Below are positions 45,711 to 64,000 of a stretch of 64,000 nt of DNA, in pieces. Positions within the stretch are counted from its first letter, which is position 1. Each line of letters starts with the position of its first letter. Both the position numbers and the translations under genes were made by a program. Origin of the DNA: Paludibacteraceae bacterium. Its GTDB lineage: Bacteria; Bacteroidota; Bacteroidia; Bacteroidales; Paludibacteraceae. The notes below the pieces were generated by a model. The model saw nothing but the letters and a program-made list of their open reading frames with translations. It was not told where the DNA came from and made no database searches. Where the stretch lies: NCBI GenBank assembly GCA_017450605.1, contig JAFSTG010000044.1, positions 3,130 through 67,129 of the forward strand. The letters run 5' to 3'.

Positions 45711-45729
45711 CGAAGAATACATCCTGTTT

Positions 45730-46271: not shown

Positions 46272-46273
46272 TT

Positions 46274-46537
46274 ATGGCAGAGCAAGAGATTCGTTATCTG
46301 ACCCCGCAACAAAGCGATCAGAAGAAAAAGAAGTATTGCCGTTTCAAGAAGAGCGGTATTAAATACATCGACTACAAAGATCCAGAGTTCTTGAAGAAAT
46401 TCCTCAACGAGCAAGGCAAGATTCTTCCTCGCCGTATTACAGGTACTTCGCTCAAGTTCCAGCGTAAAGTAGCACAGGCAGTTAAAAGAGCACGCCACTT
46501 GGCTTTGCTCCCATACGTAACCGATATGATGAAATAA
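46274..46537 (+). CDS. rpsR: 30S ribosomal protein S18
   Basis: 87 aa with the typical S18 sequence [15 protein letters not shown]...LPRRITG....QR.VA.AVKRAR.LALLPY. Confidence 0.92.
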
Positions 46538-46551
46538 TAAGGAGGGCAATT

Positions 46552-47004: not shown

Positions 47005-47027
47005 TAATTTTGTAAAAACAAAAAACT

Positions 47028-47282
47028 ATGAAACAAGGAATTCATCCTGATAATTACAGAGTGGTTGTTTTTAAGGATATGTCCGACGGAACTCAATTCT
47101 TCAGCCGTTCAACAGCCGCTACCAAAGATACTATAGAGATTGACGGCGAGACTTATCCGCTCATCAAACTCGAGATTTCTAACACTTCGCACCCGTTCTA
47201 TACTGGTAAGTCGAAGTTGGTTGACACTGCCGGTCGCGTTGACAAATTTATGTCGCGCTATGGCAATCGTCATAAGAAATAA
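47028..47282 (+). CDS. rpmE: 50S ribosomal protein L31, type B (no zinc-binding Cys motif)
   Basis: 84 aa: [10 protein letters not shown]...[18 protein letters not shown]. The CxxC pairs are absent. Confidence 0.9.
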
Positions 47283-47313
47283 ACTATCGGCTCGCAGCCG
47301 ACGGTCGATTAGC

Positions 47314-47363
47314 AACTATCAGTTATCATACGCCGACCGGCGAATGACAACTGATAGTTTTTT
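47314..47363 (+). terminator. intrinsic terminator of ribosomal protein operon
   Basis: aactatcagtt / aactgatagtt perfect 11-bp stem with an inner cgccg/cggcg stem, followed by TTTTT. Confidence 0.7.
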
Positions 47364-47385
47364 CAATACTTAATTCTCAACTATT

Positions 47386-48285
47386 ATGTCCAATACTAAA
47401 TTGAATGTTAAAGACTCCTCAACTCTACTTGTTTTTTTGCAAGAGAAAATGGGAGGAATGAGCCGAACTTCGCTCAAACAGATGCTCTCGCAGCGCCGTG
47501 TGATGGTAGATGGTCATGTGGAGACCAACTTCGCATGCCCTCTTGATGCCGGTTCGGTGGTGGAAATAGTGCATGGTCGTCCGTCTTACGAACTTAAGCA
47601 CCCAAAACTGAGGGTTGTGTATGAAGATGAGCACCTTATAGTAGTTGAGAAACGTGAGGGGTTGCTTACCGTTGCAACCTATCCCGGTTCTACCGAGACT
47701 ACTGTTTTCTCTATTTTGAAGAACTATGTAAGGCAGTCGAACCCTCGCGGCGGTGTGTTTACCGTGCATCGTCTCGACCGCGAAACATCGGGTTTGCTCG
47801 TTTTTGCCAAATCGAAAGAATTGCAGGAATATATGCGCGAGTGGTGGCGTGATATCGTTAAATGTCGCACCTATATTGCTGTGGCAGAAGGTCTGTTCGA
47901 CAAGAAAGAGGGCAGAATAGTTACGTGGCTGACCGAAGATAAGCGTAATGCAGTGGTCTATTCGTCGCCCACCGACGACGGAGGAAAGAAGTCAATCACC
48001 AATTATAAGGTTGTGAAAGAAAAAGCTGGAGAGCGGGATACCGACATCGGTCTGTCGCTCGTTGAACTTAATTTGGAAACCGGCCGTACTAACCAGATTC
48101 GTGTTCACCTTGCCTCTATCGGTCATCCCATAGCAGGCGACCGCAAGTATGGTTCCGGCACGCAACTGCCAATCGACCGACTTGCACTACATGCACGCGT
48201 GTTAGAGTTTATACATCCGGTAACGGAGAAGGTTATGCACTTTGAGACTCCAATACCGAAAGAATTCATCCGTCTGATGAAGTGA
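47386..48285 (+). CDS. RluA-family rRNA pseudouridine synthase with N-terminal S4 domain
   Basis: 299 aa with the HRLDRETSGLLVFAK catalytic-Asp motif and GRTNQIRVHLA. Confidence 0.85.
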   Translation: MSNTKLNVKDSSTLLVFLQEKMGGMSRTSLKQMLSQRRVMVDGHVETNFACPLDAGSVVEIVHGRPSYELKHPKLRVVYEDEHLIVVEKREGLLTVATYPGSTETTVFSILKNYVRQSNPRGGVFTVHRLDRETSGLLVFAKSKELQEYMREWWRDIVKCRTYIAVAEGLFDKKEGRIVTWLTEDKRNAVVYSSPTDDGGKKSITNYKVVKEKAGERDTDIGLSLVELNLETGRTNQIRVHLASIGHPIAGDRKYGSGTQLPIDRLALHARVLEFIHPVTEKVMHFETPIPKEFIRLMK

Positions 48286-48477
48286 TGCATTGGTCCCCAT
48301 TTTTCAAGGCGTCCACATCACAAAGTTTTCCATAGATTTACTGTCTCAACTTCTGCCTATGTGCGGATTTAATACTCTTTAGTTTTCCTCATTTACATTT
48401 TTTCACTAATAAATTCATCAAATTGAATCGAAAACAAGTTAGGGGAATGTTTTTTTGCATATCTGCATTGAAAATAT

Positions 48478-48485
48478 TATCTTTG
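48478..48485 (+). promoter_or_regulatory. -7 box TATCTTTG upstream of TPR/LuxR-like regulator
   Basis: Matches TAnnTTTG, 27 nt upstream of the ATG at 48512. Confidence 0.5.
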
Positions 48486-48511
48486 CCATGTGTAATCTTA
48501 AGGTATAGCTA

Positions 48512-49936
48512 ATGCCTCGGTTTAGTTTCATAATGTTTTCTTGGCTTCTGTTGCTCACCTCATGCATCGGTCCGCATGAGGCTCAGAAGGTTCTTGCCGA
48601 GGCTGATAGTCTCTATTATCAAGGTAAGTTATATCGCGATACAGTGCTTTTGAATATTTCAATTAAGGAATACAATAGATTTTTCAATTGCAGCGAAGAA
48701 AAAGCGAGATTGCTTTATTATCTTGGAAGAAACTATTCCTACGAAAAACTTGAAAATAAAGCCGTTGATTATTATATTGCAGCAGCCAAACTTAATACAA
48801 GCGATAATAAGTTACGCGGGCGTTTGTATTCAAATATGGCATATATATGTGCTCAGCAGTATAAAGACAGTTTAGCCTTGATATTTTATAACAAAGGCTC
48901 TGATATTTGGGATGAACTTGTTGATAAAGAATACTATATAGCCAATTTACTTGATATAAGTATGTCTTTGTGTAAAATGAATAAGATAATTGAATCAGAT
49001 AGTGTATGGCAAATTGCTTATAGGTATGCTAACAATGAGTATTTGCGATCCAGAGCCTTCGGAATACGTGCTTATTATTATAATGTTATATGTAAATACG
49101 ATTCTGCTATTTATTGTTTAAATAATATTACAATACCTGAAGTGTTTAATATTGCTTTTTGTGATGCTCAGCATGCCATAGCAATGTTTTACACCGACCG
49201 AGTTGATTCGGCTGTTTATTATGCAAATAAAGTTATTGCTAACCGGTCATCAACTCGTAATCAGCTTATAGCATATACCGTGTTGCGCGAGAAAGCCTAC
49301 AGAGACAATGATATATCCGCTGCTATGAAAAGGGACGACATGGTAGAAGAACTTCAGAAAACCATTGATTCAGAGAATGAGCAACGGACACTTGCGATTA
49401 GTAAATTAGAACAATATCTTCATGAAAAAGAGGATTATAATTGGTTGTGGATATTGCTGTCAGTTTTCTTCGTTGTTGTCAGCTTAATATTATTGTTTTT
49501 ATATTTTTTAAAGAATAAAAAACGCGTCAAGGCTTTGTCAGAAAAAACCGAGATACTTAGAACAAAGGAGGCGGCAATAATGTCGTTCATCAGTCATCAA
49601 CAAAAAACGACTAAAGACAATATACAGAATTTGCGTGGTTGTAATGAGTGGAAAGAGTTGCTCTGTTGGAGTCATGACTCTCAGTCTGCAACAAAGATAG
49701 ATATCTTCTTTAACAACTTTGCCACAAGGCTGCAGACCAACTATAATTTAAATATTGTCGAGATTAAATATTGCACTTTGCTATTGCTGGATTTTGATAG
49801 CAGATATATATCTGAACAACTTCCATATTCCTATTCAGGAATAAAAACATTAAAGAAACGTATAGCAAACAAACTGTTTATTCTTCCTCAGGACATGTCC
49901 GTTTTTCTTGCCAATTTTGCACTTCAATCAGAATGA
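48512..49936 (+). CDS. membrane-anchored regulator: lipoprotein-type signal, TPR-like extracytoplasmic region, one TM helix, C-terminal LuxR-like HTH
   Basis: 474 aa. MPRFSFIMFSWLLLLTSC (lipobox LTSC), then repeated Y/A-rich TPR-like helices, then a TM helix WLWILLSVFFVVVSLILLFLYFL. The C-terminus IVEIKYCTLLLLDFDSRYISEQLPYSYSGIKTLKKRIANKL resembles a GerE/LuxR HTH. Confidence 0.55.
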   Translation: MPRFSFIMFSWLLLLTSCIGPHEAQKVLAEADSLYYQGKLYRDTVLLNISIKEYNRFFNCSEEKARLLYYLGRNYSYEKLENKAVDYYIAAAKLNTSDNKLRGRLYSNMAYICAQQYKDSLALIFYNKGSDIWDELVDKEYYIANLLDISMSLCKMNKIIESDSVWQIAYRYANNEYLRSRAFGIRAYYYNVICKYDSAIYCLNNITIPEVFNIAFCDAQHAIAMFYTDRVDSAVYYANKVIANRSSTRNQLIAYTVLREKAYRDNDISAAMKRDDMVEELQKTIDSENEQRTLAISKLEQYLHEKEDYNWLWILLSVFFVVVSLILLFLYFLKNKKRVKALSEKTEILRTKEAAIMSFISHQQKTTKDNIQNLRGCNEWKELLCWSHDSQSATKIDIFFNNFATRLQTNYNLNIVEIKYCTLLLLDFDSRYISEQLPYSYSGIKTLKKRIANKLFILPQDMSVFLANFALQSE

Positions 49937-50002
49937 CCCGTCTCCATTGGTAAAATGTAGACTCGCCATTGCAGATAATCAGTAGATTACAATTACATTT
50001 GT

Positions 50003-50035
50003 AGACCTCCGATTTTTGGAGGTCTTTTCTATTTT
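50003..50035 (+). terminator. intrinsic terminator after regulator gene
   Basis: agacctcc-gattttt-ggaggtct perfect 8-bp stem followed by a T-rich tract. Confidence 0.65.
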
Positions 50036-50244
50036 ACCTAATTTTGCAGTCGAAAATTAAAGCGAATAAATAGAAGCATTAGCATCTGACATATATTATC
50101 CACCTTAGATATTAAAGGGCACGTCTAAAAAATTCACCGTTTATTAGTTTGCCCTCCGAGAAAGAATAGATTTAACCTTTTATTTGCTTTTGGTTTTTTC
50201 TTGGCATCTTGCAGATAAATCAATTTTTAAAAGTAGCATAAAAA

Positions 50245-50634
50245 ATGAAAAAGTATTTATTATTGTTGGTTTCCCTTATTGGTACTAACCTTATTGTTAA
50301 CGCCGGTTTGCCGCAAGTTATCGAACTTACTGAAGTCATTTCATTCACTCCTCAAGGCGGTCCTTTCCAAGGCTCAGGAGATGACCCCGGCTGCTATACG
50401 TGTTTTACGGCAATTATTACAGATGATATACTCAGTATAAGTAATAATTCTCAAGAATCTGTTAATATTGTCGTTACTAACATAATGACTAATAGCGTCA
50501 TTTTGTCAACTCAGATTTTATCTGAGTTTGACATCGAAGAACAAATTCCAGCAGGTAATTATCATCTGCAAATAATACCTCAAACATCTGCTACGATGGA
50601 AGGTTACTTTGTTTCAGCACAATCAATTCAATAA
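50245..50634 (+). CDS. small secreted protein (DUF3244-like beta-sandwich, tentative)
   Basis: 129 aa with signal peptide MKKYLLLLVSLIGTNLIVNAG. The C-terminal L.I......V.I.V.N......L......IPAGNY.L.I....T..EGYF pattern resembles small Bacteroides beta-sandwich proteins. Confidence 0.5.
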   Translation: MKKYLLLLVSLIGTNLIVNAGLPQVIELTEVISFTPQGGPFQGSGDDPGCYTCFTAIITDDILSISNNSQESVNIVVTNIMTNSVILSTQILSEFDIEEQIPAGNYHLQIIPQTSATMEGYFVSAQSIQ

Positions 50635-50708
50635 TCCGTATCAGTTTTCATCACTATAATTATTATGGTGTGGGAAGAACAATTATCAGCACAAACTAAT
50701 TATTTGAT

Positions 50709-51731
50709 ATGAAAAGATTCGCTTTTGTCATAATAAGTTTGTTTTTTTGTCTTTGTTCTTCGGCACAGACTTTTGAAGTTCCGTTTCTGTTTCAACCTGA
50801 CACTTTGGTAAAAAACTTGCTACCTTTTCAGGATGCAGGTGCGGCAGGCAGAGATATGACATGGAATTTCAGAAGCCTGAGCGCCGGTGAGGATTATCCT
50901 GTTTATATTCTTCAGCCAAACACAAGTGATTCCGCAAAGTTTCACACGGTAGAGCACCGTACCCGCTATTATTGGCGTATATCGGGCGATAGTTTGTATT
51001 CCGGAGGTTTCGAGAATGTCAACGCCTATATGCCGTATAAGCGACCTGAACTTAGTGTAAAACGCCTTATGACCTACGGGGATACCGTTCATAGCGTTTT
51101 TTCCGGCACGGGCGAATACGGTCATCGTCTGCCTCTGTTTGTAGAGGGCGTTGCAGATGTTACCGTTGATGCCTACGGCACACTGATACTGCCGGATGAT
51201 ACTATAAGGAATGTTTTCCGAGTGCATACCATACGCCGTTATTGGGAGATATTCTCCGACACCACCAATCTCGAAACGCACTTGTGGCAATGGTACTCCA
51301 CTGATTATAGATATCCTGTCTTCGAGTCGATGCGAACAGTGCGTGTAAATCCGTTAAATTCGTTGTCTGATACCATTGTTTACTCAGCATCTTTTATGCT
51401 ATCGCCTTCAGAACAAGAAAAAGATGTTATAAATGTTAGGAGAAGAGTTAATATATCATTCTCTGAAGATGAATCAATTTTCAGAGAAGTGAAATCTGCT
51501 CCTAATCCGGTCGTAGATAATTTGCATGTTGAGTGTGTCTTGTTGCGTGATGCAAGTGTGTCTGTTCAGATATTCAGTGCCACTGGTATTAAAATTTATC
51601 ATAATGTTTTCGACCTGTCTGCCGGACATAATTCTTTGTCAATACCTATGTCAACTCAGATTTCCGGTGCTTACACTCTACTTGTAAGTGCAGATGGTGT
51701 CATATTCGAAAAATTGTTTATCAAACAATGA
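50709..51731 (+). CDS. secreted protein with type IX secretion C-terminal sorting domain
   Basis: 340 aa with signal MKRFAFVIISLFFCLCSSAQT. The last ~75 aa (APNPVVDNLHVEC...VSVQIFSATGIKIY...LSAGHNSLSIPM...SGAYTLLV...) fit the T9SS type-A CTD pattern. The stop lies 3 nt before the next ATG. Confidence 0.7.
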   Translation: MKRFAFVIISLFFCLCSSAQTFEVPFLFQPDTLVKNLLPFQDAGAAGRDMTWNFRSLSAGEDYPVYILQPNTSDSAKFHTVEHRTRYYWRISGDSLYSGGFENVNAYMPYKRPELSVKRLMTYGDTVHSVFSGTGEYGHRLPLFVEGVADVTVDAYGTLILPDDTIRNVFRVHTIRRYWEIFSDTTNLETHLWQWYSTDYRYPVFESMRTVRVNPLNSLSDTIVYSASFMLSPSEQEKDVINVRRRVNISFSEDESIFREVKSAPNPVVDNLHVECVLLRDASVSVQIFSATGIKIYHNVFDLSAGHNSLSIPMSTQISGAYTLLVSADGVIFEKLFIKQ

Positions 51732-51734
51732 GTT

Positions 51735-54665
51735 ATGAGGAGATTTTATGTGATATTCATAGTAGCGGCGTTAAGTCGCTTGTTATATTCCCAGCCGTCA
51801 TCGCCTGAGTTGAACGTTCCTCATTCCGTATCAGTTCAACCTCATACAGGTCAGATGCAATATGATATAGAACTCTGCAGTTTGAAAGATCCTGATTTTG
51901 ATATTGCTATTCACCTTACATATACAAGCGACGGCTTTCGACCATTAGTTTATTCCGGCATTGTCGGTAAGGATTGGGCAATATCATTAGGTGGTAGCAT
52001 AACAAGAGATACAAGAGGTTTGCCAGACGACATAAATGAGAGTTTCGAAATGCCCGACCATTCGATAATAGTCAATCGTGGCTATTTAGAGTATCTTAAG
52101 CATATAGATACTTTAGAATACTATTCTCAATATAAAACAGAAGCCGAGATATTCGAACATTTCGATATCTTTGAATCAGCCAAAGATGCGAGTAGCGACT
52201 TATATAGTTTCTCAGTTTGTGGTCATAGCGGTAGTTTTGTTATTGGCTGGGATGGTAATGTGCGTTGTCTAAGTGGTGATATAGTAAGTGCTGATTTTAG
52301 CGGTATGACGACACAATCACGAAATGAGATGTCTAACAACCCATATCTTACAGGTTTTAAGATGCCCGTTCCGTCTCAAATAATATTGACAACATTAGAC
52401 GGCTATCAATACGTATTTGGAGGCAGTTTGGATGCCCTTGAGTTCTCTTATGATTTTCATAACCGGACAGAGAATACTATTTTCCGGCCATCTCCTGTAA
52501 TTACTGCTTGGCATCTGACAAAGATAATATCTCCAAACGGTAGGGAAATAGACTTGCATTACCAACCTCACGACCAGAGCCAATATAGTTATTGCGAATA
52601 TGGCAGAGGCGGGCATTATGTGAATGATGAGTTGCGTTTCACGTCTCTTTCATCTCAGTCTCTTACTCCGGTGGATTATGAGACATACACAGGTGATATA
52701 AACGAGCAGGGAATATGGGGAATTATAAACGGACAGAGTATAGTAAAGACTCATCTTCTTGATTCGTTAACAACAAGTGATAATAGTTTTCGCATAGTCA
52801 TGACATATCAAAGCGACAGCGATTATGTATTTACTCATTTTCCTGACATGCATAGTCCCTTGCTCCCTTCTACCTTCCCTCTCAAATATGTTAAACCCTT
52901 TTTACGCGCAATCAATATTACTACACCTACCGACACTATTTCATCATGGTCATTTATGTACTCTGAGGTTCGTTATGGTTCTGCTCAGACCCCTCGCCGG
53001 TATCTCACGTCCTGCAAAACATTTGGTAATATAGGTTATAGTTTCGTATATGATTTCGACAACATATCATCGCTTACTGAGGTTGATACAATGAGTAATG
53101 TTGATTTATATGGTTATCGGAATACACCGTATCATTACAAATTAGGAACTCTTAAACAGGCAAATGACATCTTAGGTGGTCGGACATTATTTGAATATGA
53201 ACCGTCGGGCTATGATAGTATCCGTATATTTTACAACTCAATAAATGGTTTACAATCAATTTTAAGAAAGGCATCGGGTAATCTTTTCCACAATGCGCGT
53301 ATAAGAGCGATAGAAATCCGCGACGCATCAGATAAATTATATCTCAAGAAACTATATACTTATGGATACAATCCCAATTGGGGACAAAACATGCGTGAAT
53401 TACCTGATTTTTTGCCGACTAATGATGGAGTCCTAAATATCGATTATGCTATACTCACTGACTCTACAAATGATACCTATCTACTTCATGGATATTTACA
53501 TCCGCAGCCTGCAAAATATAGTGTTTTAGAGTACAATAAGGTTACGGAAACGGTGTTTAAAAACGGTTCAAGTTCCGTTACATACAAAAACATTTATTAT
53601 TATGATACAACTAACGACAGCCTCGAATATAAGTCGTTTAGCGAGAATCATTTCTTTGAGATGTATTTATGTGCCTCTCAATGGAAACGACGCCAGAAAT
53701 TGGCTTACATAGAACATTTCGACAATACCGGAGCATTGCGCAACAGGACACAATATACCTATACACCTATTAAGACCGATAACTTTGCTGTAAATATCAC
53801 AAATCTTGTTTGCAAGACATACTATCCCCAGGCACTAACTCAGAGTGTGCAAGAAATTCGCTATGAAACCAATGGAAGTATTTCCGAGCGGAGTGAATAT
53901 GTGTATGATAAGTTTAACAGGCTGAAGACCGAAGATATATATACCGGTACAGAGCATCGTTTCCGCAACTACGTCTATGTTGACGATTTATTTGCGACCG
54001 ATACTATCCGCGTCGGTCAGTTTGCTTGGGGCTGCTGGCTGATGAATAAAAATAAACGTATCCTATTGCCTGTCGAGACAACCATAGGATATGTCAGAAA
54101 TGGTATAAAATACGTTACCTCAAGCTCGTTGACACTTTACAAACTTTATGAGAGTGGAGGACATGTGCAGGATGATATTCTTCCTGTAGATAGCGGGGGG
54201 AACAATTTCGGTTTGCGAAGCGGTATTATCCCGCCCGAAAATTATGTTGCTTATTCCGCTCCTTATGCGGCAATGGAACTACGTCTTTCAGAGCCGATCT
54301 CAGACTTCAGCCCGGTAGCAAAAGTCAGTGGAAGAGTGGTTGCCGACAGCAGATATGACACCGTAGCAACATATTTCTATAATGCCTCTCTCAGACCTGT
54401 TAAGATAGAGCCATACGGAGGATTTGCCAAACATATAGCGTGGGATAGCAAAGGTTTGAATATATTGTCAGAACGCATAGGAGCAAGAACGACAACATAC
54501 ACTTGGAAACCTTATATCGGCATAACATCAAGTACCGATGCCGGAGGCAACACCATATATTATCGTTATAATCTGCTCGGACAATTGATAGAAATATATA
54601 GGATGAGAGGTAACGTTAAAGAAGTTCTGAATTATTACGAATATCATTATCCGGTTTTGGAATAA
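51735..54665 (+). CDS. 976-aa secreted protein with SpvB/TcB-N-like start and sparse YD repeats (Rhs-shell-related accessory protein)
   Basis: Signal MRRFYVIFIVAALSRLLYSQ. The N-terminus HTGQMQYDIEL...IHLTYTSDG...GKDWAISLGGSITRDTRGLPDD resembles the SpvB-domain start of TcB/Rhs shells. There are YD-like repeats (YVYDKFNRLKTE, YYRYNLLGQLIEIY). The stop lies 1 nt before the rhs ATG. Confidence 0.5.
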   Translation: MRRFYVIFIVAALSRLLYSQPSSPELNVPHSVSVQPHTGQMQYDIELCSLKDPDFDIAIHLTYTSDGFRPLVYSGIVGKDWAISLGGSITRDTRGLPDDINESFEMPDHSIIVNRGYLEYLKHIDTLEYYSQYKTEAEIFEHFDIFESAKDASSDLYSFSVCGHSGSFVIGWDGNVRCLSGDIVSADFSGMTTQSRNEMSNNPYLTGFKMPVPSQIILTTLDGYQYVFGGSLDALEFSYDFHNRTENTIFRPSPVITAWHLTKIISPNGREIDLHYQPHDQSQYSYCEYGRGGHYVNDELRFTSLSSQSLTPVDYETYTGDINEQGIWGIINGQSIVKTHLLDSLTTSDNSFRIVMTYQSDSDYVFTHFPDMHSPLLPSTFPLKYVKPFLRAINITTPTDTISSWSFMYSEVRYGSAQTPRRYLTSCKTFGNIGYSFVYDFDNISSLTEVDTMSNVDLYGYRNTPYHYKLGTLKQANDILGGRTLFEYEPSGYDSIRIFYNSINGLQSILRKASGNLFHNARIRAIEIRDASDKLYLKKLYTYGYNPNWGQNMRELPDFLPTNDGVLNIDYAILTDSTNDTYLLHGYLHPQPAKYSVLEYNKVTETVFKNGSSSVTYKNIYYYDTTNDSLEYKSFSENHFFEMYLCASQWKRRQKLAYIEHFDNTGALRNRTQYTYTPIKTDNFAVNITNLVCKTYYPQALTQSVQEIRYETNGSISERSEYVYDKFNRLKTEDIYTGTEHRFRNYVYVDDLFATDTIRVGQFAWGCWLMNKNKRILLPVETTIGYVRNGIKYVTSSSLTLYKLYESGGHVQDDILPVDSGGNNFGLRSGIIPPENYVAYSAPYAAMELRLSEPISDFSPVAKVSGRVVADSRYDTVATYFYNASLRPVKIEPYGGFAKHIAWDSKGLNILSERIGARTTTYTWKPYIGITSSTDAGGNTIYYRYNLLGQLIEIYRMRGNVKEVLNYYEYHYPVLE

Positions 54666-54666
54666 T

Positions 54667-57600
54667 ATGAGGTTGGGTCGCTTATATATTGTCATATTGT
54701 TTTGTTGCTTGTCAGCTGATGTTTGGTCTCAGGTGATTATCAATCAGGTGTTTTACGATAGTCCGCTAAACGAAGAGATTACTCATCCGCCTTATTCTAA
54801 TGGTGAGTTCATAGAGCTGTACAATACTCAAGATAGTGCTGTATCTCTTTCCGGCTGGCATCTTCATGGGGGAGGCAAGACAGAAAGATATGATTTTCCG
54901 TCGAATATAACACTCTCTGCACATGGTTACCTTTCTGTTGCTTATCGTCATTTGCAAACATCATCGTTCGTCTTGGATTCTCTTATAGAGTTACCCGATT
55001 CGTATTTGGTCCTCTATCAGCGCAAGGTGATATTGAGCAACTCCGGCGAAGGTCTCGCTTTGTATAATGCCGACAATATGCGTGTTGATACGATGCGTTA
55101 TACAGCACGCCCTGCAAAGAATGCAGACAGCATCCCTTTGGCAGATTGTCTGAGTATGCAGCGCATAGGGATATCCTATAACCAGAATCAGCATGGGGTG
55201 TATCAATCGCAAGACTGGGTGGCGGGATTTGTGAACTTCGCTCAGACCGCCCCAACTCAGCAGTCATGGTTGCCGGATGCCGATTATTACGGAGGCAGTC
55301 TTATGGTCTCTAACGACAAGGCTTATATAGTCAGAGTGTCGTCGCGAAGCAGCACAAGTGGCATCACTTCTACCGAAGGCGATGTGCTTGTCAGTGGAGG
55401 TGGCATGGCTGATGTTACAATAACGTGGTATGACCCTCTTGGACGCAATATTCAGTCAACCCAACGCCGCAAAACTTCATCAGGGAAGAATATAGTCACA
55501 AGCACCTTATACACAGCGTCCAATTCAACCCGGCAATGGCTGCCGCTGCCTACAGAAAGCAACGACTTCTTCGAAGAAAGTGTTTTTGCCTCGTCTGCTA
55601 CGAGTTATTACGACGATAATGCACCATATCGTGAAACTGTATATGAGAAACTATACAAAGGCAGACCAACCACTACCACTCAGGCGGGAGTAGAATATCA
55701 GTCGCACCCTGCAACAGAATCGTATGGAGTGAATGTGTCAGATGAAGTCGTTCGCTGGAGCGTCGGTCAGCAGCAAGTACTTAAAGAAGGTTGCTATTCT
55801 GAAGGCACATTGCAAAAACTTACGCATGCCGATGAAGACGGACACGCAGCAACTATATTTACCGATGCCGCCGGCAAGAAGATAATGCTTCGAATGGGCG
55901 ATGATGTGGAAACATATTATGTGTACGACGATTTAGGTCGGCTGCGTTATGTCTTACCCCCTGCTGCAGTTAAGGCGCTTTCAAGTTGTAGTTCTTTCAC
56001 TGATTCGGCAGAACCTGTCAGGCATTATGCATATATCTACCGTTATGACAATCGCGGCAACTGCATATACAAGAAGCTGCCCGGCATAGAACCTATCTAT
56101 ATGGTTTACGACAGGCTTGGTCAGCTTGCACTGACGCAAGACGGCAATCAGCGTCAACGTGGCGACTATTGGACAGCCATAAGATATAATCAGTATGGCG
56201 ACATGGTAATTCGTTGCGAGATATTATCAGCAAGTAGCAGTCACGCAGATATGCTTTCTTATTGGAGTGACAAAACAGCTTTGGCATCATTCTCGTTGGA
56301 ACCGAGTAATAGGGCAATTGCCGGTACCGGTTATATCGACGCCAACGAGTCATTACAAGTTTCTCAAATGCTTGAAGTCAACTACTACGATGACTATGCA
56401 AGCCTTTCCTGTCTGCCGGATAGTATCTCCAACCGTCTAACATATCAACAGCTGAGCGGTTATGATACTCGCTCTAATAACGCTATCGGTATGCTGACGA
56501 GCAAACGCATCTATACACTCGGCGATACAACCTATACATATACAGTATATTATTACGACAAATACGGACAACTTATTCAGCAGCGTGCGAGTGAGTGGGA
56601 CGGCAGTTACGAATATTCGTATATGGCATATAACTTTGACGGAAGTGTTGCCAACACCTTAAAACAACGTTCTCAAATCACAGAGACATATACTTATGAG
56701 TATGATATCACAGGCATGCCAACACGGACGTTGTATAGTATAAACAACAGTGAGCCGACAGTGCTGTCAGCCGACTCTTACGATGACCTAAGTCGATTGA
56801 CCAACCGCCAACGGCACAATGCAGCAGACTCAGAGAGCTATGAGTATGACTTGCGAGGCAACCTCACGCAAACACAAAGCGGAGATTTTACCGAATTGCT
56901 TGTCTATGTGAGTGGTAATATCGGTTATTGCGGAACTATCTCAGAAATGACGGTGGTGCAGGATACCATACAGCAAAATTGGCATTATCAGTATGACAAC
57001 CTAAAGCGTCTTACTTCGTCATCGCTTACAAATGGCAATAGTGCCCAAAGACTTTCCGAGCAACTTACATACGACGATATGGGTAATATCCTTACCTTAG
57101 AGCGCTATGTAGGCGGAGTGCTGACCGATGACCTCGAATATTCCTATCGCGGTAATCAGCTTGTCGGACTGACCAATTACGCTGAGCCGTCTGACACATA
57201 CGATATTACGCAGTATCCCGACCGTTCCGATGCCGATACGACCATGCGTTACGATGCTAACGGAAATTTAATTGCAGATTTCGACCGACAAATTTCTGCA
57301 ATTCAATATAATTTACTAAATTTGCCGACGCAAGTACAATTTTCAAACGGCAATGCTATTGTCAACACATATAATGCCGGCGGCGTGAAACTATCAACCA
57401 CGTATTATACCTTACCTGAGAATGTAGTAGTACCGATAGGTACGATACTGCCAATAGAATACACGTCGTCGGATGTCTCTGTTTATCAAAAGAGATATTT
57501 CGGAAACGTAGAGTACGAAAGTTTTGCGAACGACACCACCGTGCAGGTAAGAATACACAATGCCGAAGGGTATGTGGCGGCAACACTTAGTAACGACCAC

Positions 57601-58620
57601 TTGATAACCACAACCTATAACTATTACCGTCGCGACCACTTAGGTAATATCGTTTCTGTGTGGGATGCGACCAACGATACAACCGTTCAGCGCACCTTCT
57701 ATTATGCTACAGGCATGCCGATGCCTGAGAGCCGCGGGCGCAGCAAGCAGCCGAACCTCTATAACGGTAAGGAATACGAGCAGGTTCATGGCTATAATGT
57801 ATATGACTTTGGCGCCCGGGGTTACTATGCAGCCGTTGCCCGTTTTACAAGTATTGACCCGCTCGCAGAAAACACCCCATGGCAATCGCCCTACAACTAT
57901 GCGTCGAATAACTTTATCGCCGAAATAGACTGGATGGGGTTAGGAGATGTATATACAACAAATAATCAGGATGCTATTGCATCTCTGCTCGGATATCTAT
58001 CAAATGGAGGCTCGCTAAATGATTATGATTTTGATGAAAGCGAGGGGTGGATAGATGTAACTGATGAGGTAAGAGGCTATTTGGGTTTAAAAGAAGTTTA
58101 TTTCAATATTAACTCATGGATTGATACCGATAATAGCTATGGAACAGGACCTTTTATAGGGAAAGAACTAATGATTAAGGGTTTTTATGTCAATCCAACT
58201 ACTGATATACTAAAAATTATTGACTTGATTGATGGAAAAAGTGATGAAAATGCTTTAGATTCTAATCATTGGCTTCTTAATCCTTTGTTTGGCGATAATG
58301 TATCAGCAATAAGTTTATTATTAGAACGATACAAAAGTGCTTCGAGAATCGGTCAACTAATGACTTCTTTGTCTTATTCTATAAACTTTATTCAGTATCT
58401 TAGCCTATTGCAAACCGCCCAAAAACAAGGTATATCAGTTGGTTGGTGGTATAATTTTACAAAAACCACAATAGGTTTAATCCCAATCAAAGAGATTCAA
58501 ATGATAATACTTGTTGTTGACACGTATGATTATATATGGAGTGTATACAATAAGCAGTATAAGCAATTGGATAATCATTTAAATAGTATAGATTTCTGGG
58601 CATATTACTATGGCTACTAA
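54667..58620 (+). CDS. Rhs-family polymorphic toxin: Sec signal, lamin-tail domain, DUF6443-like region, YD repeats, Rhs core, variable C-terminal toxin
   Basis: 1317 aa. MRLGRLYIVILFCCLSADVWSQ signal. LTD pattern VIINQVFYD...NGEFIELYNTQDSAVSLSGWHL. Many YD repeats (YVYDDLGRLRYV, YRYDNRGNCIYK, YDRLGQLAL, YYYDKYGQLIQQ, YQYDNLKRLTSS, YDDMGNILTLER, RYDANGNLI). Core: RRDHLGNIV...YNGKEYE...YDFGARGYYAAVARFTSIDPLAE...NNFIAEIDWMGLG. An AT-rich unique tail follows. Confidence 0.88.
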   Translation: MRLGRLYIVILFCCLSADVWSQVIINQVFYDSPLNEEITHPPYSNGEFIELYNTQDSAVSLSGWHLHGGGKTERYDFPSNITLSAHGYLSVAYRHLQTSSFVLDSLIELPDSYLVLYQRKVILSNSGEGLALYNADNMRVDTMRYTARPAKNADSIPLADCLSMQRIGISYNQNQHGVYQSQDWVAGFVNFAQTAPTQQSWLPDADYYGGSLMVSNDKAYIVRVSSRSSTSGITSTEGDVLVSGGGMADVTITWYDPLGRNIQSTQRRKTSSGKNIVTSTLYTASNSTRQWLPLPTESNDFFEESVFASSATSYYDDNAPYRETVYEKLYKGRPTTTTQAGVEYQSHPATESYGVNVSDEVVRWSVGQQQVLKEGCYSEGTLQKLTHADEDGHAATIFTDAAGKKIMLRMGDDVETYYVYDDLGRLRYVLPPAAVKALSSCSSFTDSAEPVRHYAYIYRYDNRGNCIYKKLPGIEPIYMVYDRLGQLALTQDGNQRQRGDYWTAIRYNQYGDMVIRCEILSASSSHADMLSYWSDKTALASFSLEPSNRAIAGTGYIDANESLQVSQMLEVNYYDDYASLSCLPDSISNRLTYQQLSGYDTRSNNAIGMLTSKRIYTLGDTTYTYTVYYYDKYGQLIQQRASEWDGSYEYSYMAYNFDGSVANTLKQRSQITETYTYEYDITGMPTRTLYSINNSEPTVLSADSYDDLSRLTNRQRHNAADSESYEYDLRGNLTQTQSGDFTELLVYVSGNIGYCGTISEMTVVQDTIQQNWHYQYDNLKRLTSSSLTNGNSAQRLSEQLTYDDMGNILTLERYVGGVLTDDLEYSYRGNQLVGLTNYAEPSDTYDITQYPDRSDADTTMRYDANGNLIADFDRQISAIQYNLLNLPTQVQFSNGNAIVNTYNAGGVKLSTTYYTLPENVVVPIGTILPIEYTSSDVSVYQKRYFGNVEYESFANDTTVQVRIHNAEGYVAATLSNDHLITTTYNYYRRDHLGNIVSVWDATNDTTVQRTFYYATGMPMPESRGRSKQPNLYNGKEYEQVHGYNVYDFGARGYYAAVARFTSIDPLAENTPWQSPYNYASNNFIAEIDWMGLGDVYTTNNQDAIASLLGYLSNGGSLNDYDFDESEGWIDVTDEVRGYLGLKEVYFNINSWIDTDNSYGTGPFIGKELMIKGFYVNPTTDILKIIDLIDGKSDENALDSNHWLLNPLFGDNVSAISLLLERYKSASRIGQLMTSLSYSINFIQYLSLLQTAQKQGISVGWWYNFTKTTIGLIPIKEIQMIILVVDTYDYIWSVYNKQYKQLDNHLNSIDFWAYYYGY
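57388..57946 (+). repeat. rhs 3' core-encoding segment that recurs in downstream orphan cassettes
   Basis: 57388-57610 matches 63780-64000 with about 8 mismatches in 221 nt by eye. 57677-57946 matches 61602-61871 with roughly 10% mismatch. 57118-57140 plus about 57818-57940 match 60112-60270. Confidence 0.9.
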
Positions 58621-59176
58621 TAAAAAAGAATATCAATATAGTGTAAACAAGGGGCGAACTATACTTCTGGTGTTAAAGCATTTGATGTATTCTATGCTTA
58701 TATTATTCCCGTTTGTATATGGCTTATTAGGATGTAAAGAAGAGGATAAGTTAACTTTTGCATTAATTCTATCTTTTTTCATCCTATTAGACCTTTCATG
58801 GATAACGCTAGGCATTTTCCACTATTTATATGACAAAGATTCAAAATTATACTATAACGAGCAAGATAATTCTTTCATCTTCATACATAAAGATGTAGAA
58901 TATAATTTTAAAGTCAGTGATATTAAATATCATAAAAGTTATTGGCATAAGGCAAATGCATTGAAAATTAACATACTAATACTTAAAGATGGAACACAAA
59001 TATGTATGTTCGAATGGTTAAATGTAGATCACTTTATTAAAAAAATTATTAGTAAATCGAAGTTGCAATTAGAAGATTATGATGAAATTAGTACTCCTTT
59101 TCTTAGGTTTCACTATGAGACTATATGCGCAATAATAGAACATAGAGACCCACATTACAATTGCAGCGAGCAATGA
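58610..59176 (+). CDS. putative cognate immunity protein (two TM helices plus cytoplasmic domain)
   Basis: 188 aa. The ATG overlaps the last 11 nt of the rhs gene. Two hydrophobic helices are present (LMYSMLILFPFVYGLLG, FALILSFFILLDLSWITLGIF). The call rests on position and on sharing AT-rich composition with the toxin tip. Confidence 0.55.
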   Translation: MATNKKEYQYSVNKGRTILLVLKHLMYSMLILFPFVYGLLGCKEEDKLTFALILSFFILLDLSWITLGIFHYLYDKDSKLYYNEQDNSFIFIHKDVEYNFKVSDIKYHKSYWHKANALKINILILKDGTQICMFEWLNVDHFIKKIISKSKLQLEDYDEISTPFLRFHYETICAIIEHRDPHYNCSEQ

Positions 59177-59316
59177 CAATGGTACGTAATTATATACATA
59201 GACTATGTAAGTAAAAAGATTTGTTTCAGAACAGAATATCATTATATGTTGTCGCCAGATAAAATTTATTTTACAATAACTGACGTTCAAATAGTTCTTT
59301 TTTCTGTTATGATATT

Positions 59317-59928
59317 ATGAAGACAATTTTTAAATTTAAGACTTATTCTGAAGGTATTAGGGATTACTATATTGTAAGTGGAAAAGAGAAAGAAATATGG
59401 ATGCGACTCAGCATCATAAAGTTGGTTTTTGTTTCGCTTATATGGTATCTTTGGGAATACATAGCCGTTATTAGTATACTTATTATTGTGCTACCTCGTG
59501 AAATATTAGATTCTATTTATTCATCAGGTTGGATATTATATGCGTGTTATGCCATAATATTTTTAATATGTGAGATTGTCCCTACTGTTGTAAGAGTTAG
59601 ATCATATTATAAAAAAAATTCACAAATTGCATTCGAAGAAGTTGTTGATGGTAAACTAATTAAGTACAAACGTGCTTTTTTTCTTCCATACAAGTCATTC
59701 TTTCCTAACTTTTTATCTTTTATTCCTACAGGCAACCCAGTCACTTTTCCTTTGACTATTGCTGATAGACAATGGTACTATACCATTGGAATAAATGAAA
59801 ATAATGAAATGAAGTGTAAATGTGATGCTTGTGGTGAAATATTTTCTATTACGAATAATACATTATACACATTGTGCCCACATTGTTATACGCAGAATCA
59901 GATACTATTTCTTACTGATTCTTACTGA
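59317..59928 (+). CDS. membrane protein with C-terminal CxC-x2-C...CxxC zinc ribbon (cassette family member 1)
   Basis: 203 aa with two TM helices and the C-terminus EMKCKCDACGEIFSITNNTLYTLCPHCYTQN. It is a paralogue of the 60890-61492 product. Confidence 0.6.
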   Translation: MKTIFKFKTYSEGIRDYYIVSGKEKEIWMRLSIIKLVFVSLIWYLWEYIAVISILIIVLPREILDSIYSSGWILYACYAIIFLICEIVPTVVRVRSYYKKNSQIAFEEVVDGKLIKYKRAFFLPYKSFFPNFLSFIPTGNPVTFPLTIADRQWYYTIGINENNEMKCKCDACGEIFSITNNTLYTLCPHCYTQNQILFLTDSY

Positions 59929-60111
59929 TCCGCACTTAAGCCTCATTTGAAATAAATTAGCCATAAATTAGTCATCCATTATTATTTACGTTAATGTGTG
60001 CGGATAACTAGAGTATAATACGTTTATTATCTGTCGTGTGAAAATTATATTAAACTAAATTATAATATTATGAAGGTCAAATTTTTATCAGTGCTGCTCG
60101 TTGCAGCTGTT

Positions 60112-60649
60112 GTGTTGACCGATGACCTCGAATCTTGGAGCAAGAGGCTATTATGCCACGATAGTCCGCTTTACAAGTATTGACCCGCTCGCAGAAAACA
60201 CCCCGTGGCAATCGCCCTACAGCTATGCATCAAATAACTTTATCGCCGAAATCGACTGGATGGGGATGGGAGATGTATAAAGAATTGCCAAATGGCTGAA
60301 AGCACAAGGTGTCGGTGAGTCCGAGAAACAGAATCTTGATGCCATGCGACCATTTTTTCAGGGAATTATTTTATTAAATCCATTGGTTGATTTAACAAAC
60401 AATATAAAAATTGTTACAACAGGTTCTAATATCTATGGAACAGAATCAACGAATGTTGATAAGTTTTTGGCAGTTACCGGCTTTATTTTATTTGGTGTAA
60501 ATAATATCAAATATATAGCTAAACCTATTATAAAAATTATAAAAAGTCCTATTTGCGAACGTATATTTTCGTATATCGAAAAATTATTAACACTTTATTC
60601 AGCTGCTGATACTATAAAAAATGAAAAAAATAAAGCAAACAATAATTAG
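60112..60649 (+). pseudogene. degenerate orphan rhs cassette: internally deleted core remnant, in-frame TAA, then alternative toxin tip
   Basis: A 22-nt match to rhs 57118-57140 is joined out of frame to a core remnant (LGARGYYATIVRFTSIDPLAENTPWQSPYSYASNNFIAEIDWMGMGDV). A TAA at 60278-60280 follows. The same frame then continues RIAKWLKAQGVGE...MRPFFQG... to 60649 (track ORF 60344-60649). Confidence 0.7.
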
Positions 60650-60833
60650 AATGCTTAAAGCATTATTAAGGAATATCGTATGTTTTTTTTGCTATGCTAT
60701 TATACGTTCTTATTATCCGGCTCTTGGTATGCCGCCGGCACCAATAGCTGATACACTATCTGATTCTACATTCTGGATTCTTTTTGCTATATTCTACCCA
60801 ATAATGTATGTTGATGTTATCCTCCATGAATAA
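60621..60833 (+). CDS. small membrane protein, putative immunity for the degenerate orphan tip
   Basis: 70 aa with two hydrophobic segments. It overlaps the end of the orphan tip ORF by 29 nt, mirroring the rhs/immunity overlap at 58610. Confidence 0.4.
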   Translation: MKKIKQTIIRMLKALLRNIVCFFCYAIIRSYYPALGMPPAPIADTLSDSTFWILFAIFYPIMYVDVILHE

Positions 60834-60889
60834 TAGTTCATTATTGAAGACAACGTTATTTATCGTTATTTGTTAAAATATTATATTTT

Positions 60890-61492
60890 ATGAATGAAAT
60901 ATTTAAATTAATCACACCAAATGGAGTAGAGGATTTCCGCATTCTTAATGAAAATGAAAGAAAAAGATGGGTTATATGGAATCATATAAAAATTAGCTTT
61001 TTCTGTATCATTTCAGATGCAGCAGGATTATGTTTGTTATATTTTCTTGTGGTTAGTTTTTTACACTTATTTTTTAACTTTTCAGATATGTTTTTTACAT
61101 ATATTTATATCTCTGTTACCTTGATAGTCATTTTTATTCATTTAGTTGTAGTGAACATCATGGAATATAAAGAACATGAACTTGAATGGGCATTCGATGA
61201 TATTGAAGAAGGTGTAACTATTCACTATAAACGAATTTTATTTATAAAAGACTCTTATTGGATAATACATATACTAAATTTTATATTTGGATTTATGTTG
61301 GGGCGAATAACTTATGTAGCATTCGCTAATACCAATAAGACTTATTGCTATTGCATTATAGGAGTAAATAACAAAAAAGAAATGAAATGCAAATGTGGTA
61401 ATTGTAAAGCCCTGATACCTATTTATAGAAATACTTTAAATAGTAAGTGTCCGCATTGTAATTATCAAAATATTCTTTATATATTGCAATAG
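60890..61492 (+). CDS. membrane protein with C-terminal zinc ribbon (cassette family member 2)
   Basis: 200 aa with TM helices and the C-terminus EMKCKCGNCKALIPIYRNTLNSKCPHCNYQN. It shares IFK, E.E..W, I.YKR and IG.N...EMKCKC motifs with the 59317-59928 product. Confidence 0.6.
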   Translation: MNEIFKLITPNGVEDFRILNENERKRWVIWNHIKISFFCIISDAAGLCLLYFLVVSFLHLFFNFSDMFFTYIYISVTLIVIFIHLVVVNIMEYKEHELEWAFDDIEEGVTIHYKRILFIKDSYWIIHILNFIFGFMLGRITYVAFANTNKTYCYCIIGVNNKKEMKCKCGNCKALIPIYRNTLNSKCPHCNYQNILYILQ

Positions 61493-61495
61493 CCG

Positions 61496-62257
61496 TTGGT
61501 CTTTTGTGCAAGTTTGTTATTTTATGCGGCTTTATCGTTCATTCTGGAGAATAATACTTTTTTGAAATGCTGTTTTTATCATCATCTAATGTCGTTTTAT
61601 TATACAATCGTTCAGCGCACATTCTATTATGCTACAGGCATGCCGATGCCTGAGAGCCGCGGGCGCAGCAAGCAGCCGAACCTATATAACGGAAAGGAAT
61701 ACGAGCAGGTTCATGGCTATGATGTATATGACTTTGGTGCAAGAGGCTATTATGCCACGATAGCACGCTTTACGAGTATTGACCCGCTTGCAGAAAACAC
61801 CCCGTGGCAATCGCCCTACAGCTATGCATCAAATAACTTTATCGCCGAAATCGACTGGATGGGGTTAGGAGGATATAATGCGTATAACAATGATTTATTT
61901 ATTACTCCTCACTTAACTATCGTGGATGAGTCTGGGAATATTATCGTTCAAGTTGTTAATGAGGATTATACTGTTTACATGAAGAAAGAAGATTCGGATG
62001 CCCTCATTATTGTAGGTTATGAAATAAGAGTTGAAAATACAATAATTGGATATGCTGGTGTAGATATTAATAATTTTACCATATATAGTTCAAAAAATTA
62101 TGATCAATTATATGGTGAAACAATGATTGGGGGACTATATAGTGGAACGGAATCAAGAGCGAGAAAATGGGGAGGCTTTAATGATTTGGGAGTATTTATG
62201 AAATATGGTTTTGGTAAAAGTAACTTTTTAATTTATGACATCATAGTAGATTTTTAG
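61496..62257 (+). CDS. orphan Rhs C-terminal cassette (core remnant plus a third, different toxin tip)
   Basis: From 61602 the DNA matches rhs 57677-57946 (TIVQRTFYYATGMPMPESRGRSKQPNLYNGKEYE...IDWMGLG). A unique 128-aa tail follows. The upstream 35 codons and the TTG start are not rhs-like, so independent expression is doubtful. Confidence 0.7.
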   Translation: MVFCASLLFYAALSFILENNTFLKCCFYHHLMSFYYTIVQRTFYYATGMPMPESRGRSKQPNLYNGKEYEQVHGYDVYDFGARGYYATIARFTSIDPLAENTPWQSPYSYASNNFIAEIDWMGLGGYNAYNNDLFITPHLTIVDESGNIIVQVVNEDYTVYMKKEDSDALIIVGYEIRVENTIIGYAGVDINNFTIYSSKNYDQLYGETMIGGLYSGTESRARKWGGFNDLGVFMKYGFGKSNFLIYDIIVDF

Positions 62258-63026
62258 CACTATATGGTATAATATCATATACAAAATCTAATAATTGTAA
62301 TAACGTTTTAAATGAAGATAGTAGTCCATATTCATGCAATCCCTCAAGTACTGAACAATATTCAATTTTAACTAAAAAGTATAAGAAATCTAATTTTTTT
62401 GTTCAGATGAATGGTAAAATTATTGAAGTTTGGTTAGATCAGTTTAATGAGCCTTATTATGGTACTCCACCAGATTCTGTTGTATTTGTAATTTCAAAGA
62501 AAAATTAATAAAAGAAACCAATCTGTCGAACAATAGTAAATAGTTGTAAATAAATGCATTACTCAAGTGTTTTGTGCTTTAAATTGTCAATGTGAATATA
62601 TTGTTTATTATTGCTTGTTAGACAAAGATTAAAAGGTATTCGGACAACGCGTACAAATCGTCAAAATCAGCATATAAATACTTGCGAAATGTCGACATAA
62701 AGATGTCAAAACCTTTATCACAAAGCATTAAACCCGCTTATTTACTCACCTAAATGAATGAACAAAATAGGCAATCATTTTGAATAAGAACCTATTGAAC
62801 ATTTTTAGACACGATTGCGGCTTGATGCAAACTCGATAGTTTATGCATCTTTTGAAAGTGTCCATAACACATATTTGCTGATTCAACAATGCAAAGATTT
62901 TAGACTTTGAAGAATACTAATATATGTTTTTAATCAACACTTTATAAGACGATTTTATCACATTCGGAGTTTCTCAATCGAAAAATAAAACTAATATAAA
63001 CAAAGGATTCATTAATTTCATAGCTT

Positions 63027-63758
63027 ATGCTACTTAAAATATACTTTAATTTGCTAATTACCTATTGCGATAGATTATTCAATCTGAATAGGTTATTTTT
63101 TTATTCAATTATTATTTGTACTTTTTGTGTTAATTGCTCTAATAAACAAAATCACATTGTTTACGATAAAATTTTATCAAATAATAATTGCATTAAAATA
63201 GAAGGTTATAATTGTAAAGATACTATATGCATACAATATTATAATAAAGATAAACTCTCTACCGAATACATTTTTAATGGTTTAAATAATCCCACAAAGA
63301 TTGAGTATTATGAAGACGGATGTATAAAATACAAAGGTAAATTAACTTTTGATTCAAATTTAGAACCACAACATAATTTTATTTCTCAACAATCAAAAAT
63401 AATACTAAAACATGAAATTGCCTCACAAAATATAAAAGATGTATATATTTTATCGGATGAGAAAAAAAATGTAACTATAACTGCAAACACTTTCTTCTTT
63501 GTAGAAACATATATAGAAAACTATCATCCCACTCAATATAAAGTGTATATTCAAGAATTTGGTACAAAAAACAAAAATATTGTAGAATTAAAAAGTATGT
63601 GGGATATAAATCCCCTCGATATATATAGTGGTGTTTATTATTTCCAAACAAAAAATCAGAACTACAAGATAAATATTTTTTTAAAAGACACAAGCAACAA
63701 TAATCCAATTGATAACACAAATTCAATATGTTACACGTTAGACGTGAAAATGATATAG
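63027..63758 (+). CDS. AT-rich hypothetical lipoprotein within the cassette array
   Basis: 243 aa with a hydrophobic N-terminus ending in the lipobox-like FCVNCS. Asn/Lys/Ile-rich composition; no recognised motif. Confidence 0.4.
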   Translation: MLLKIYFNLLITYCDRLFNLNRLFFYSIIICTFCVNCSNKQNHIVYDKILSNNNCIKIEGYNCKDTICIQYYNKDKLSTEYIFNGLNNPTKIEYYEDGCIKYKGKLTFDSNLEPQHNFISQQSKIILKHEIASQNIKDVYILSDEKKNVTITANTFFFVETYIENYHPTQYKVYIQEFGTKNKNIVELKSMWDINPLDIYSGVYYFQTKNQNYKINIFLKDTSNNNPIDNTNSICYTLDVKMI

Positions 63759-63779
63759 AAATTTCGAATTAGTATATTA

Positions 63780-64000
63780 AAACTATCAACCACGTATTAC
63801 ACCTTACCTGAGAATGTAGTAGTACCGATAGGTACGATAATGCCAATAGAATACACGTCGTCGGATGTCTCTGTTTATCAAAAGAGATACAGCGGAAACG
63901 TAGAGTACGAGAGTTTTGCCAACGACACCACCGTGCAAGTAAGAATACACAATGCCGAAGGGTATGTGGCGGCAACACTTAGTAACGACCACTTGATAAC
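63780..64000 (+). pseudogene. start-less orphan rhs 3' fragment, continues beyond window end
   Basis: In frame and about 96% identical to rhs 57388-57610 (KLSTTYYTLPENVVVPIGT...). The frame opens only at 63759, after a TAG, with no start codon before the homology. Confidence 0.8.

Follow-up and report, generated by a model that had tools for sequence, protein, structure and literature searches.

Recurrent zinc-ribbon-like membrane proteins in a Bacteroidales Rhs array are probably immunity proteins of displaced toxin tips

Why does the same kind of membrane protein recur behind unrelated toxin cassettes of a single Rhs array? The question is raised by two genes near the end of a 64,000-nucleotide (nt) stretch of DNA from Paludibacteraceae bacterium (assembly GCA_017450605.1, contig JAFSTG010000044.1, positions 3,130–67,129 of the forward strand), referred to here as the window. 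The two open reading frames (ORFs), znA at 59317–59928 (203 amino acids, aa) and znB at 60890–61492 (200 aa), both present on the + strand as an earlier note on this DNA had described them, lie in a chromosomal Rhs locus at the window end amid housekeeping genes, each behind a toxin tip and a gene for a small transmembrane (TM) protein. The earlier note took them for a third component, or an accessory factor, that the standard Rhs toxin/immunity model does not include, and listed an immunity gene for a lost tip among its other options. Our analysis favours that option. We consider it likely that the zn proteins form a small, lineage-restricted, membrane-anchored immunity family for Rhs toxins of one type, called here tip5-type, and we regard znA clearly, and znB probably, as an orphan immunity gene. 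The paralogy, the gene order, the fossil junctions, the rarity of the family and the decay of the adjacent toxins are all direct observations.

The paralogy of the two proteins was confirmed by BLASTP (28% identity over ~200 aa, E 1e-20) and by a Smith-Waterman score of z = 28 against shuffled sequences, which none of 200 shuffles matched. The shared motifs reported earlier also proved real and were invariant in all six family members, comprising E24 and W28 near the N-terminus, I115, Y117 and R119 of the I.YKR motif, and the C-terminal E-M/I-K-C-x-C-x2-C...C-P-H-C..Q-N. Five invariant cysteines were found in the C-terminal motif instead of the four counted before, namely C167, C169, C172, C187 and C190 (C-x-C-x2-C-x14-C-x2-C, 6/6 sequences), of which C169-x2-C172 and C187-x2-C190 form the CxxC knuckles of a zinc ribbon pattern and C167 is an addition to it. 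Of the two or three TM helices proposed, two were robust, appearing as hydropathy peaks at residues ~33–58 and 70–98 of znA, znB and the third paralogue znC, and the third reached the hydropathy threshold in znB only and had low confidence in an AlphaFold2 (AF2) model. The ribbon region was the best conserved between znA and znB (49% identity vs 22% elsewhere), which suggests that the ribbon serves structure and that specificity probably resides in the N-terminal hairpin, the TM helices and the beta region.

The first evidence for an immunity function came from three other contigs (L001, L002 and L003). The 15-kb metagenome contig L003 was 100% identical to window positions 58000–64000 and extended the same array, which places znC in that array too. 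There, orphan 5, which carries the tip called tip5 (7542–8468), was followed after 33 nt by znC (8502–9131), a protein 52% identical to znA and 30% to znB, with no small TM gene between tip and znC. Contig L001 carried a tip5-type tip (36–740; about 83–85% identical to tip5), then the family member P0002 (774–1421) and a full-length DUF5016 lipoprotein gene, and L002 carried the end of a tip5-type tip followed by the family member P0003. In all three independent contigs the zn gene began 33 nt after the tip5-type ORF with nothing in the interval, as the sole candidate directly downstream of the toxin C-terminal domain, and by this gene order zn alone appears to fill the immunity slot. The earlier note had said that a paralogue serving as sole immunity for its adjacent tip would make the family ordinary immunity, and genomic context gives this arrangement for znC, P0002 and P0003. 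Its statement that a zn gene fills the slot after each tip and small TM gene held for two of the three window cassettes, tip1 with imm1 and tip2 with imm2, and failed for orphans 3, 4 and 6 of the array, which have no zn gene.

The flanks of znA indicated how it came to lie in a cassette of another type. The gene starts 140 nt after imm1 (58610–59176, +), a 188-aa two-TM protein gene whose start overlaps the stop of the Rhs gene by 11 nt and which is likely the cognate immunity gene of tip1, the current C-terminal tip of the Rhs gene (from ~57928, after the DWMGLG motif). One continuous blastn high-scoring segment pair joined window 59263–60117 to L001 720–1572. This homology block opened 54 nt before the znA ATG, within the end of the tip5-type ORF, and identity was 65–69% in those 54 nt vs 20–22% in the 54 nt preceding. 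The 54 nt (59263–59316, +) hold what remains of the 3′ end of a displaced tip5-type toxin ORF and the 33-nt toxin-to-zn spacer, the toxin stub at 59263–59283 encoding N-L-F-Y-N-N-stop, the last six codons and stop of the toxin (AAT TTA TTT TAC AAT AAC TGA in the window vs AAT TTC TTT TAC AAT AAC TAA in L001), and its 21-mer occurred once in the window. On the other side (59929–60117, +), the spacer after znA ran into a stub of the DUF5016 lipoprotein gene, and the block ended at 60117, 48 nt into that gene, after 16 codons (60070–60117, MKVKFLSVLLVAAVVL) that were 100% identical at the protein level. The same gene (487 aa in full) follows zn at full length in the loci L001 and L008, and the rest of it was absent from the window and from L003. 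Since the block is continuous and cut on both sides, znA is a relic of a tip5-type toxin-zn-lipoprotein locus and not part of the tip1/imm1 cassette, and tip1 with imm1 appears to stand where the former toxin of znA was. The toxin has thus been reduced to six codons and a stop beside an intact immunity ORF. Flanked by a toxin stub and a foreign-gene stub, znA bears out the option of an immunity gene for a lost tip, which extends to znB by analogy only.

Several further observations concern these junctions. The lipoprotein stub is left isolated in the interval from znA to orphan 2. In nucleotide sequence, window 59778–60117 was 91% identical to L008 and the rest of znA ~70–75%. A 94%-identical imm1-znA locus was found in the metagenome contig L010 (298–820; 3x coverage), where 12 nt are inserted in TM1 of znA and the frame shifts after residue ~108, so that this copy is either decaying or misassembled.

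The family proved exceedingly small. An exhaustive hidden Markov model search of 1.84 billion representative proteins returned three true clusters (znC type, znB and a truncated znA type), and a weak extra match, P0006 (E 1e-4), a TM protein with an N-terminal zinc ribbon and another domain order, was treated as spurious. A word-indexed homologue search gave four matches. Among 185,579 species genomes the family was present in one metagenome-assembled genome (MAG), that of an uncultured Bacteroidales (locus L009), and none was found in JGI metagenome contigs, IMG/VR viral contigs or PLSDB plasmids. The toxin partner was equally rare, tip5 matching itself alone in a 5.8e9-protein set and nothing in the JGI metagenomes; imm1 matched one 95%-identical cluster only. 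All 11 recovered zn loci lay in Rhs cassette contexts, so that the confinement to toxin loci on which the earlier note had set its reading formally holds, in a family too small for this to carry much weight. Identical zn proteins recurred in several samples, and sample labels such as XIEF21 and SHIW14 hint at the gut of ruminants as the habitat.

Within the family, divergence followed the pattern of toxin partners. The zn paralogues were 28–58% identical. Between L003 and L001, the ratio of nonsynonymous to synonymous substitution rates (dN/dS) was 0.91 for tip5 at 85% identity, and 0.72 for znC and P0002, which were 83% identical; the lipoprotein beside zn was 99.4% identical between L001 and L008. 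In the two pairs compared, zn co-diverged with its toxin, as polymorphic immunity does, and these sequences suggest that the tip5-type tip and zn diverge together and quickly. P0002 was a mosaic, its first ~160 columns being 89–90% identical to znC and 47–49% to znA, and its last 45 columns, the ribbon region, 95% identical to znA, and it appears to be a recombinant zn allele.

The surroundings of znB were less direct. It starts 57 nt after imm2 (60621–60833, +), a 70-aa small hydrophobic membrane ORF whose first 29 nt overlap the end of tip2 and which shows two hydrophobic stretches by eye, one of which alone reaches the hydropathy threshold; imm2 is likely an orphan immunity gene for tip2. 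The toxin ahead of it, orphan 2 (60122–60649, +), consists of a 46-codon Rhs core remnant ending DWMGMGDV, a TAA and a tip2 remnant. The in-frame TAA (60278–60280) splits tip2 (ORF 60344–60649) from its core remnant, making orphan 2 a decayed toxin module. Since tip1 and tip4 open with GDV, the residues just before this TAA, the junction looks like a recombination scar between a core remnant and the 3′ portion of a different toxin. In L009, the 3′ part of tip2, imm2, znB and the next orphan core formed a block 92% identical to the window. The L009 tip2 (1872–2213) was 5′-truncated, fused to an unrelated N-terminus and shortened at its 3′ end, imm2 was intact (70 aa, 91% aa identity to the window, dN/dS 0.51 on 12 substitutions), and znB was intact (198 aa, 96% identical, dN/dS 0.22). 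The unrelated N-terminus of the L009 tip2 piece bears a signal peptide, and the piece adjoins a SusD-like gene. Tip2 was thus decayed in both genomes that carry it, with imm2 and znB intact in both, and this decay beside intact immunity-like ORFs fits an orphan-immunity stretch, a pattern that does not prove the independence of znB from tip2 and imm2. By analogy with znA, znB is probably an orphan immunity gene as well. Two candidate links to the znB upstream region were rejected: the string NIIFYE-stop just upstream of znB resembles the end of tip5 but overlaps the znB ATG in AT-rich DNA and was not counted, and a homology of tip2 to tip5, which would make znB cognate to tip2, was at z <= 0.1. 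No tip5-like sequence was found upstream of znB.

Structure prediction gave a partial picture of the zn fold. The AF2 model of znA, built from a four-sequence alignment, reached a predicted local distance difference test (pLDDT) score of 64.7 and contained a hairpin at residues 4–19, helices at 22–58 and 61–101, strands within 106–124, a low-confidence stretch at 128–152 and ribbon strands at 155–184, in keeping with an N-terminal beta-hairpin, two TM helices, a beta-rich domain and a C-terminal five-cysteine zinc-ribbon-like motif. The N-terminal 31 residues of the proteins held 5–7 Lys/Arg, the 8–11-residue loop between the helices 0–1, and the part after TM2 10–14, a charge distribution that fits a predicted topology with both termini cytoplasmic (N-in/C-in). 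A PDB sequence search with zn gave chance-level matches only. Scans of znA, znB, znC, imm1 and imm2 against Pfam, NCBIfam and PADLOC found nothing above threshold; for zn, the generic zinc-ribbon profiles matched below their curated cut-offs (E 0.004–0.03), no Pfam Imm family matched, with only sub-threshold zinc-ribbon families at E <= 0.1–1, and no Rhs accessory, chaperone or defence family of the three libraries matched. Neither imm1 nor the 177-aa two-TM protein after orphan 6 proved homologous to zn (hhalign probability 0.1–0.2%, Smith-Waterman z < 0.2). The sigma-70 consensus promoter scan was uninformative in such AT-rich Bacteroidales DNA, and no TAnnTTTG motif was found upstream of znA or znB.

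Taken together, these data suggest the following course of events. The ancestral unit would have been a tip5-type Rhs C-terminal toxin domain, a 33-nt spacer and zn. In the strain of the window, the tip1+imm1 cassette would then have recombined into the main Rhs gene, removing the tip5-type toxin except for its last six codons and retaining znA, which is how immunity genes commonly become orphans. By the same reasoning znB would be a second, older orphan, in a stretch of decayed toxin parts and intact immunity-like ORFs. As to the protein, two TM helices would anchor zn in the inner membrane with both ends cytoplasmic, and the N-terminal hairpin may combine with the post-TM strands into a single small domain, stabilised by a CxxC...CxxC knuckle that would bind zinc. 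Through this domain, the TM hairpin or both, zn would capture toxin domains that arrive at the membrane and neutralise them, with different paralogues specific for different toxin alleles. We infer here the immunity function, the topology, the metal binding and the specificity.

Some of our own findings weigh against this reading. The znA model is of moderate confidence and has no structural neighbours (none at E <= 0.001 in a Foldseek search against PDB), and the single-sequence model of tip5 scored a pLDDT of 31.7. The link of zn to tip5 is drawn from adjacency in three short contigs of one lineage, and what is left of the toxin ahead of znA is as short as 21 nt of ORF, in AT-rich DNA. No tip remnant was recognisable in the 57 nt upstream of znB, and tip2 (3′ part), imm2 and znB move as a unit between two genomes and may be a genuine three-gene module. 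Finally, a new tip and a small TM gene lie ahead of zn twice, a mild coincidence under chance displacement.

We therefore weighed other accounts of the same genes. If zn were a genuine third component or accessory of Rhs cassettes, acting for instance in toxin release, maturation or delivery with any toxin type, this would explain why it stands twice in the window behind unrelated pairs of tip and small TM gene and why the tip2-imm2-znB block is kept as a unit in a second genome. This account is quite unlikely. It is opposed by orphans 3, 4 and 6 of the array, which have no zn, by the loci of L001, L002 and L003, where zn lies directly behind the tip with no other immunity candidate, by the fossils of a different locus that flank znA, by the immunity-like divergence of the copies (28–58% identity), by the absence of the family from all other Rhs-bearing organisms searched and by the scans of Pfam, NCBIfam and PADLOC, in which no known Rhs accessory family matched. 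Tips 1, 2 and 5 are unrelated to one another, and in an accessory factor for unrelated toxins one would not expect divergence as great as that of these copies (22% identity outside and 49% within the ribbon region). The proposal of a component outside the standard model is therefore unsupported, and the arrangement of zn is an ordinary toxin-locus pattern that leaves the Rhs toxin/immunity model unchanged. Somewhat better, and still unlikely, is the idea of zn as a further and broader layer of immunity that cross-protects in part from several membrane-directed Rhs toxins. It has been proposed that two-TM immunity proteins work without specific binding, by keeping toxins from being taken up at the membrane (PMC3482391), zn is retained repeatedly beside different cassettes, and the ribbon is the best conserved part (49% vs 22%, znA vs znB). 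Yet the TM and beta regions are strongly diverged between paralogues and dN/dS is elevated (0.56–0.72), both of which speak for recognition of particular alleles, a generic barrier would have no need of three paralogues in the same array, and the fossil junction makes the position of znA historical rather than functional. A small chance is left, mainly because of the tip2-imm2-znB block, that zn is kept at cassette boundaries for generic or second-layer protection or for handling of unrelated tips, with tip2-imm2-znB, and functionally tip1-imm1-znA, as three-gene modules.

That zn has nothing to do with immunity, being a membrane zinc-ribbon regulator, a holin-like protein or a partner of the DUF5016 lipoprotein copied with the cassettes, is very unlikely. 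Its place between Rhs tip and lipoprotein gene in L001 and L008, the lack of any family assignment and the weak match to P0006 speak for this idea, but znB and znC do not adjoin the lipoprotein gene, all 11 loci are Rhs cassette contexts, and three diverged paralogues in one toxin array, co-restricted with tip5, would be hard to explain for a housekeeping partner. It is likewise very unlikely that one or both ORFs are decaying relics without current function, even though they lie amid decayed toxin fragments, the frameshifted znA of L010 exists and dN/dS is fairly high. Both ORFs are full length and keep the invariant residues and five cysteines at 28% identity, znB is 96% identical to its L009 orthologue at dN/dS 0.22, exactly the same proteins occur in several samples, and the frameshift in L010 was seen at 3x coverage only and may be an assembly error.

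The favoured reading, that zn is an immunity family with orphans left by tip exchange, has a close precedent. Rhs-RhsI pairs are described as commonly having orphan immunity genes right behind them, and protection by such genes has been demonstrated in Serratia (PMC10539506), where in Serratia marcescens Db10 the gene SMDB11_2280 lies behind rhs1-rhsI1 (PMC10539506). As there, an intact immunity-type gene follows right after an in-use toxin/immunity pair and is homologous to the cognate immunity of another Rhs tip, in other strains or elsewhere in the array, and its origin would be exchange of C-terminal toxin and immunity genes by recombination in the conserved Rhs core. Unlike SMDB11_2280, zn is unrelated in sequence, membrane-anchored and has a zinc-ribbon-like C-terminus, and its protection is inferred, and the Rhs protein here carries a signal peptide, LTD and DUF6443 and lies outside a PAAR or type VI secretion system (T6SS) context. 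Imm17 and Imm-CdiI are two-TM immunity families of polymorphic toxin systems (Zhang et al. 2012, PMC3482391), Imm17 occurring in Bacteroidetes polyimmunity loci (PMC3482391), and resemble zn as small proteins built on two TM helices; unlike them, zn has an extra ~100-aa beta-rich domain and a five-cysteine ribbon and no sequence match to Pfam Imm families. That survey described no immunity family with a zinc ribbon (PMC3482391), and the zn family therefore appears new. Immunity genes without cognate toxins also occur in the acquired interbacterial defence arrays of Bacteroidales (Ross et al. 2019, cited in PMC10539506; also PMC12247911, PMC10470768). Toxin-less immunity genes pile up, evolve rapidly and recombine in these arrays, as they appear to do here; unlike those mobile and T6SS-effector-directed arrays, the orphans here lie inside a chromosomal Rhs orphan-cassette array with housekeeping flanks. 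Finally, the C-terminus resembles generic zinc ribbons and rubredoxin-like knuckles (the HypA C-terminus, RpoP and DUF7130) in its CxxC-x14-CxxC spacing and short beta strands, and differs from them in an extra invariant cysteine two residues before the first CxxC and in its fusion to a membrane anchor.

The remaining parts of the locus complete the picture of the array. The full-length Rhs/YD-repeat toxin gene (54667–58620, +; 1317 aa), identified as an ORF and by Pfam and NCBIfam scans, has an N-terminal signal peptide, LTD (Pfam 8e-16), DUF6443 (Pfam 7.5e-13) and an Rhs-associated core (NCBIfam Rhs_assc_core 4e-9), and the cassettes after it are AT-rich (GC 28–34% vs 42–48% in the Rhs body). 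It is preceded by the gene for a secreted protein of 976 aa that matches YD repeats weakly (51735–54665), and 5′ of the Rhs gene lie a DUF3244 protein and a protein with a type IX secretion system C-terminal sorting domain (sub-threshold match). Housekeeping genes flank the array upstream (uvrD-like, rplI and pseudouridine synthase, window 42714–54665) and downstream (trmD and rnpA, L003 11392–13589), and no T6SS genes were found near it. Precomputed annotations list PF26566 (PH_40) for imm1 and its 95%-identical relative, and our Pfam scan of imm1 was empty even at E <= 1, probably owing to a difference in library version. After znB comes orphan 3 (61496–62257, +), an Rhs core remnant with tip3 and no zn-family gene after it; about 770 nt following it (within 62258–63758) hold no + strand ORF of at least 40 aa, a 243-aa Cys-rich ORF without family match lies at 63027–63758, and the immunity gene for tip3 may have decayed. 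Tips 1, 2 and 3 were mutually unrelated past the core junction, as were tips 1, 2 and 5, and imm1 was unrelated to imm2. Orphan 4 starts at about 63770–63840 in the window; in L003 it is followed by a 127-aa TM protein, then by orphan 5 and znC, and orphan 6 by the 177-aa two-TM protein, before trmD and rnpA. Tip1 (in window 57928–58220) and tip4 (of orphan 4, L003 5937–7157) were 61% identical over the first 97 residues after DWMGLG and unrelated thereafter, which suggests that they share a pre-toxin or linker sub-domain on which the toxin ends have been exchanged.

If the favoured reading is true, zn would be one more immunity family for polymorphic toxin systems, of limited practical value given its confinement to one uncultured Bacteroidales lineage and of unusual build, with two TM helices and a cytoplasmic domain braced by a zinc ribbon. 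The locus would also offer an unusually clear fossil record of a tip swap that stranded an immunity gene, with a six-codon toxin stub on its 5′ side and a 16-codon stub of the neighbouring gene on its 3′ side.

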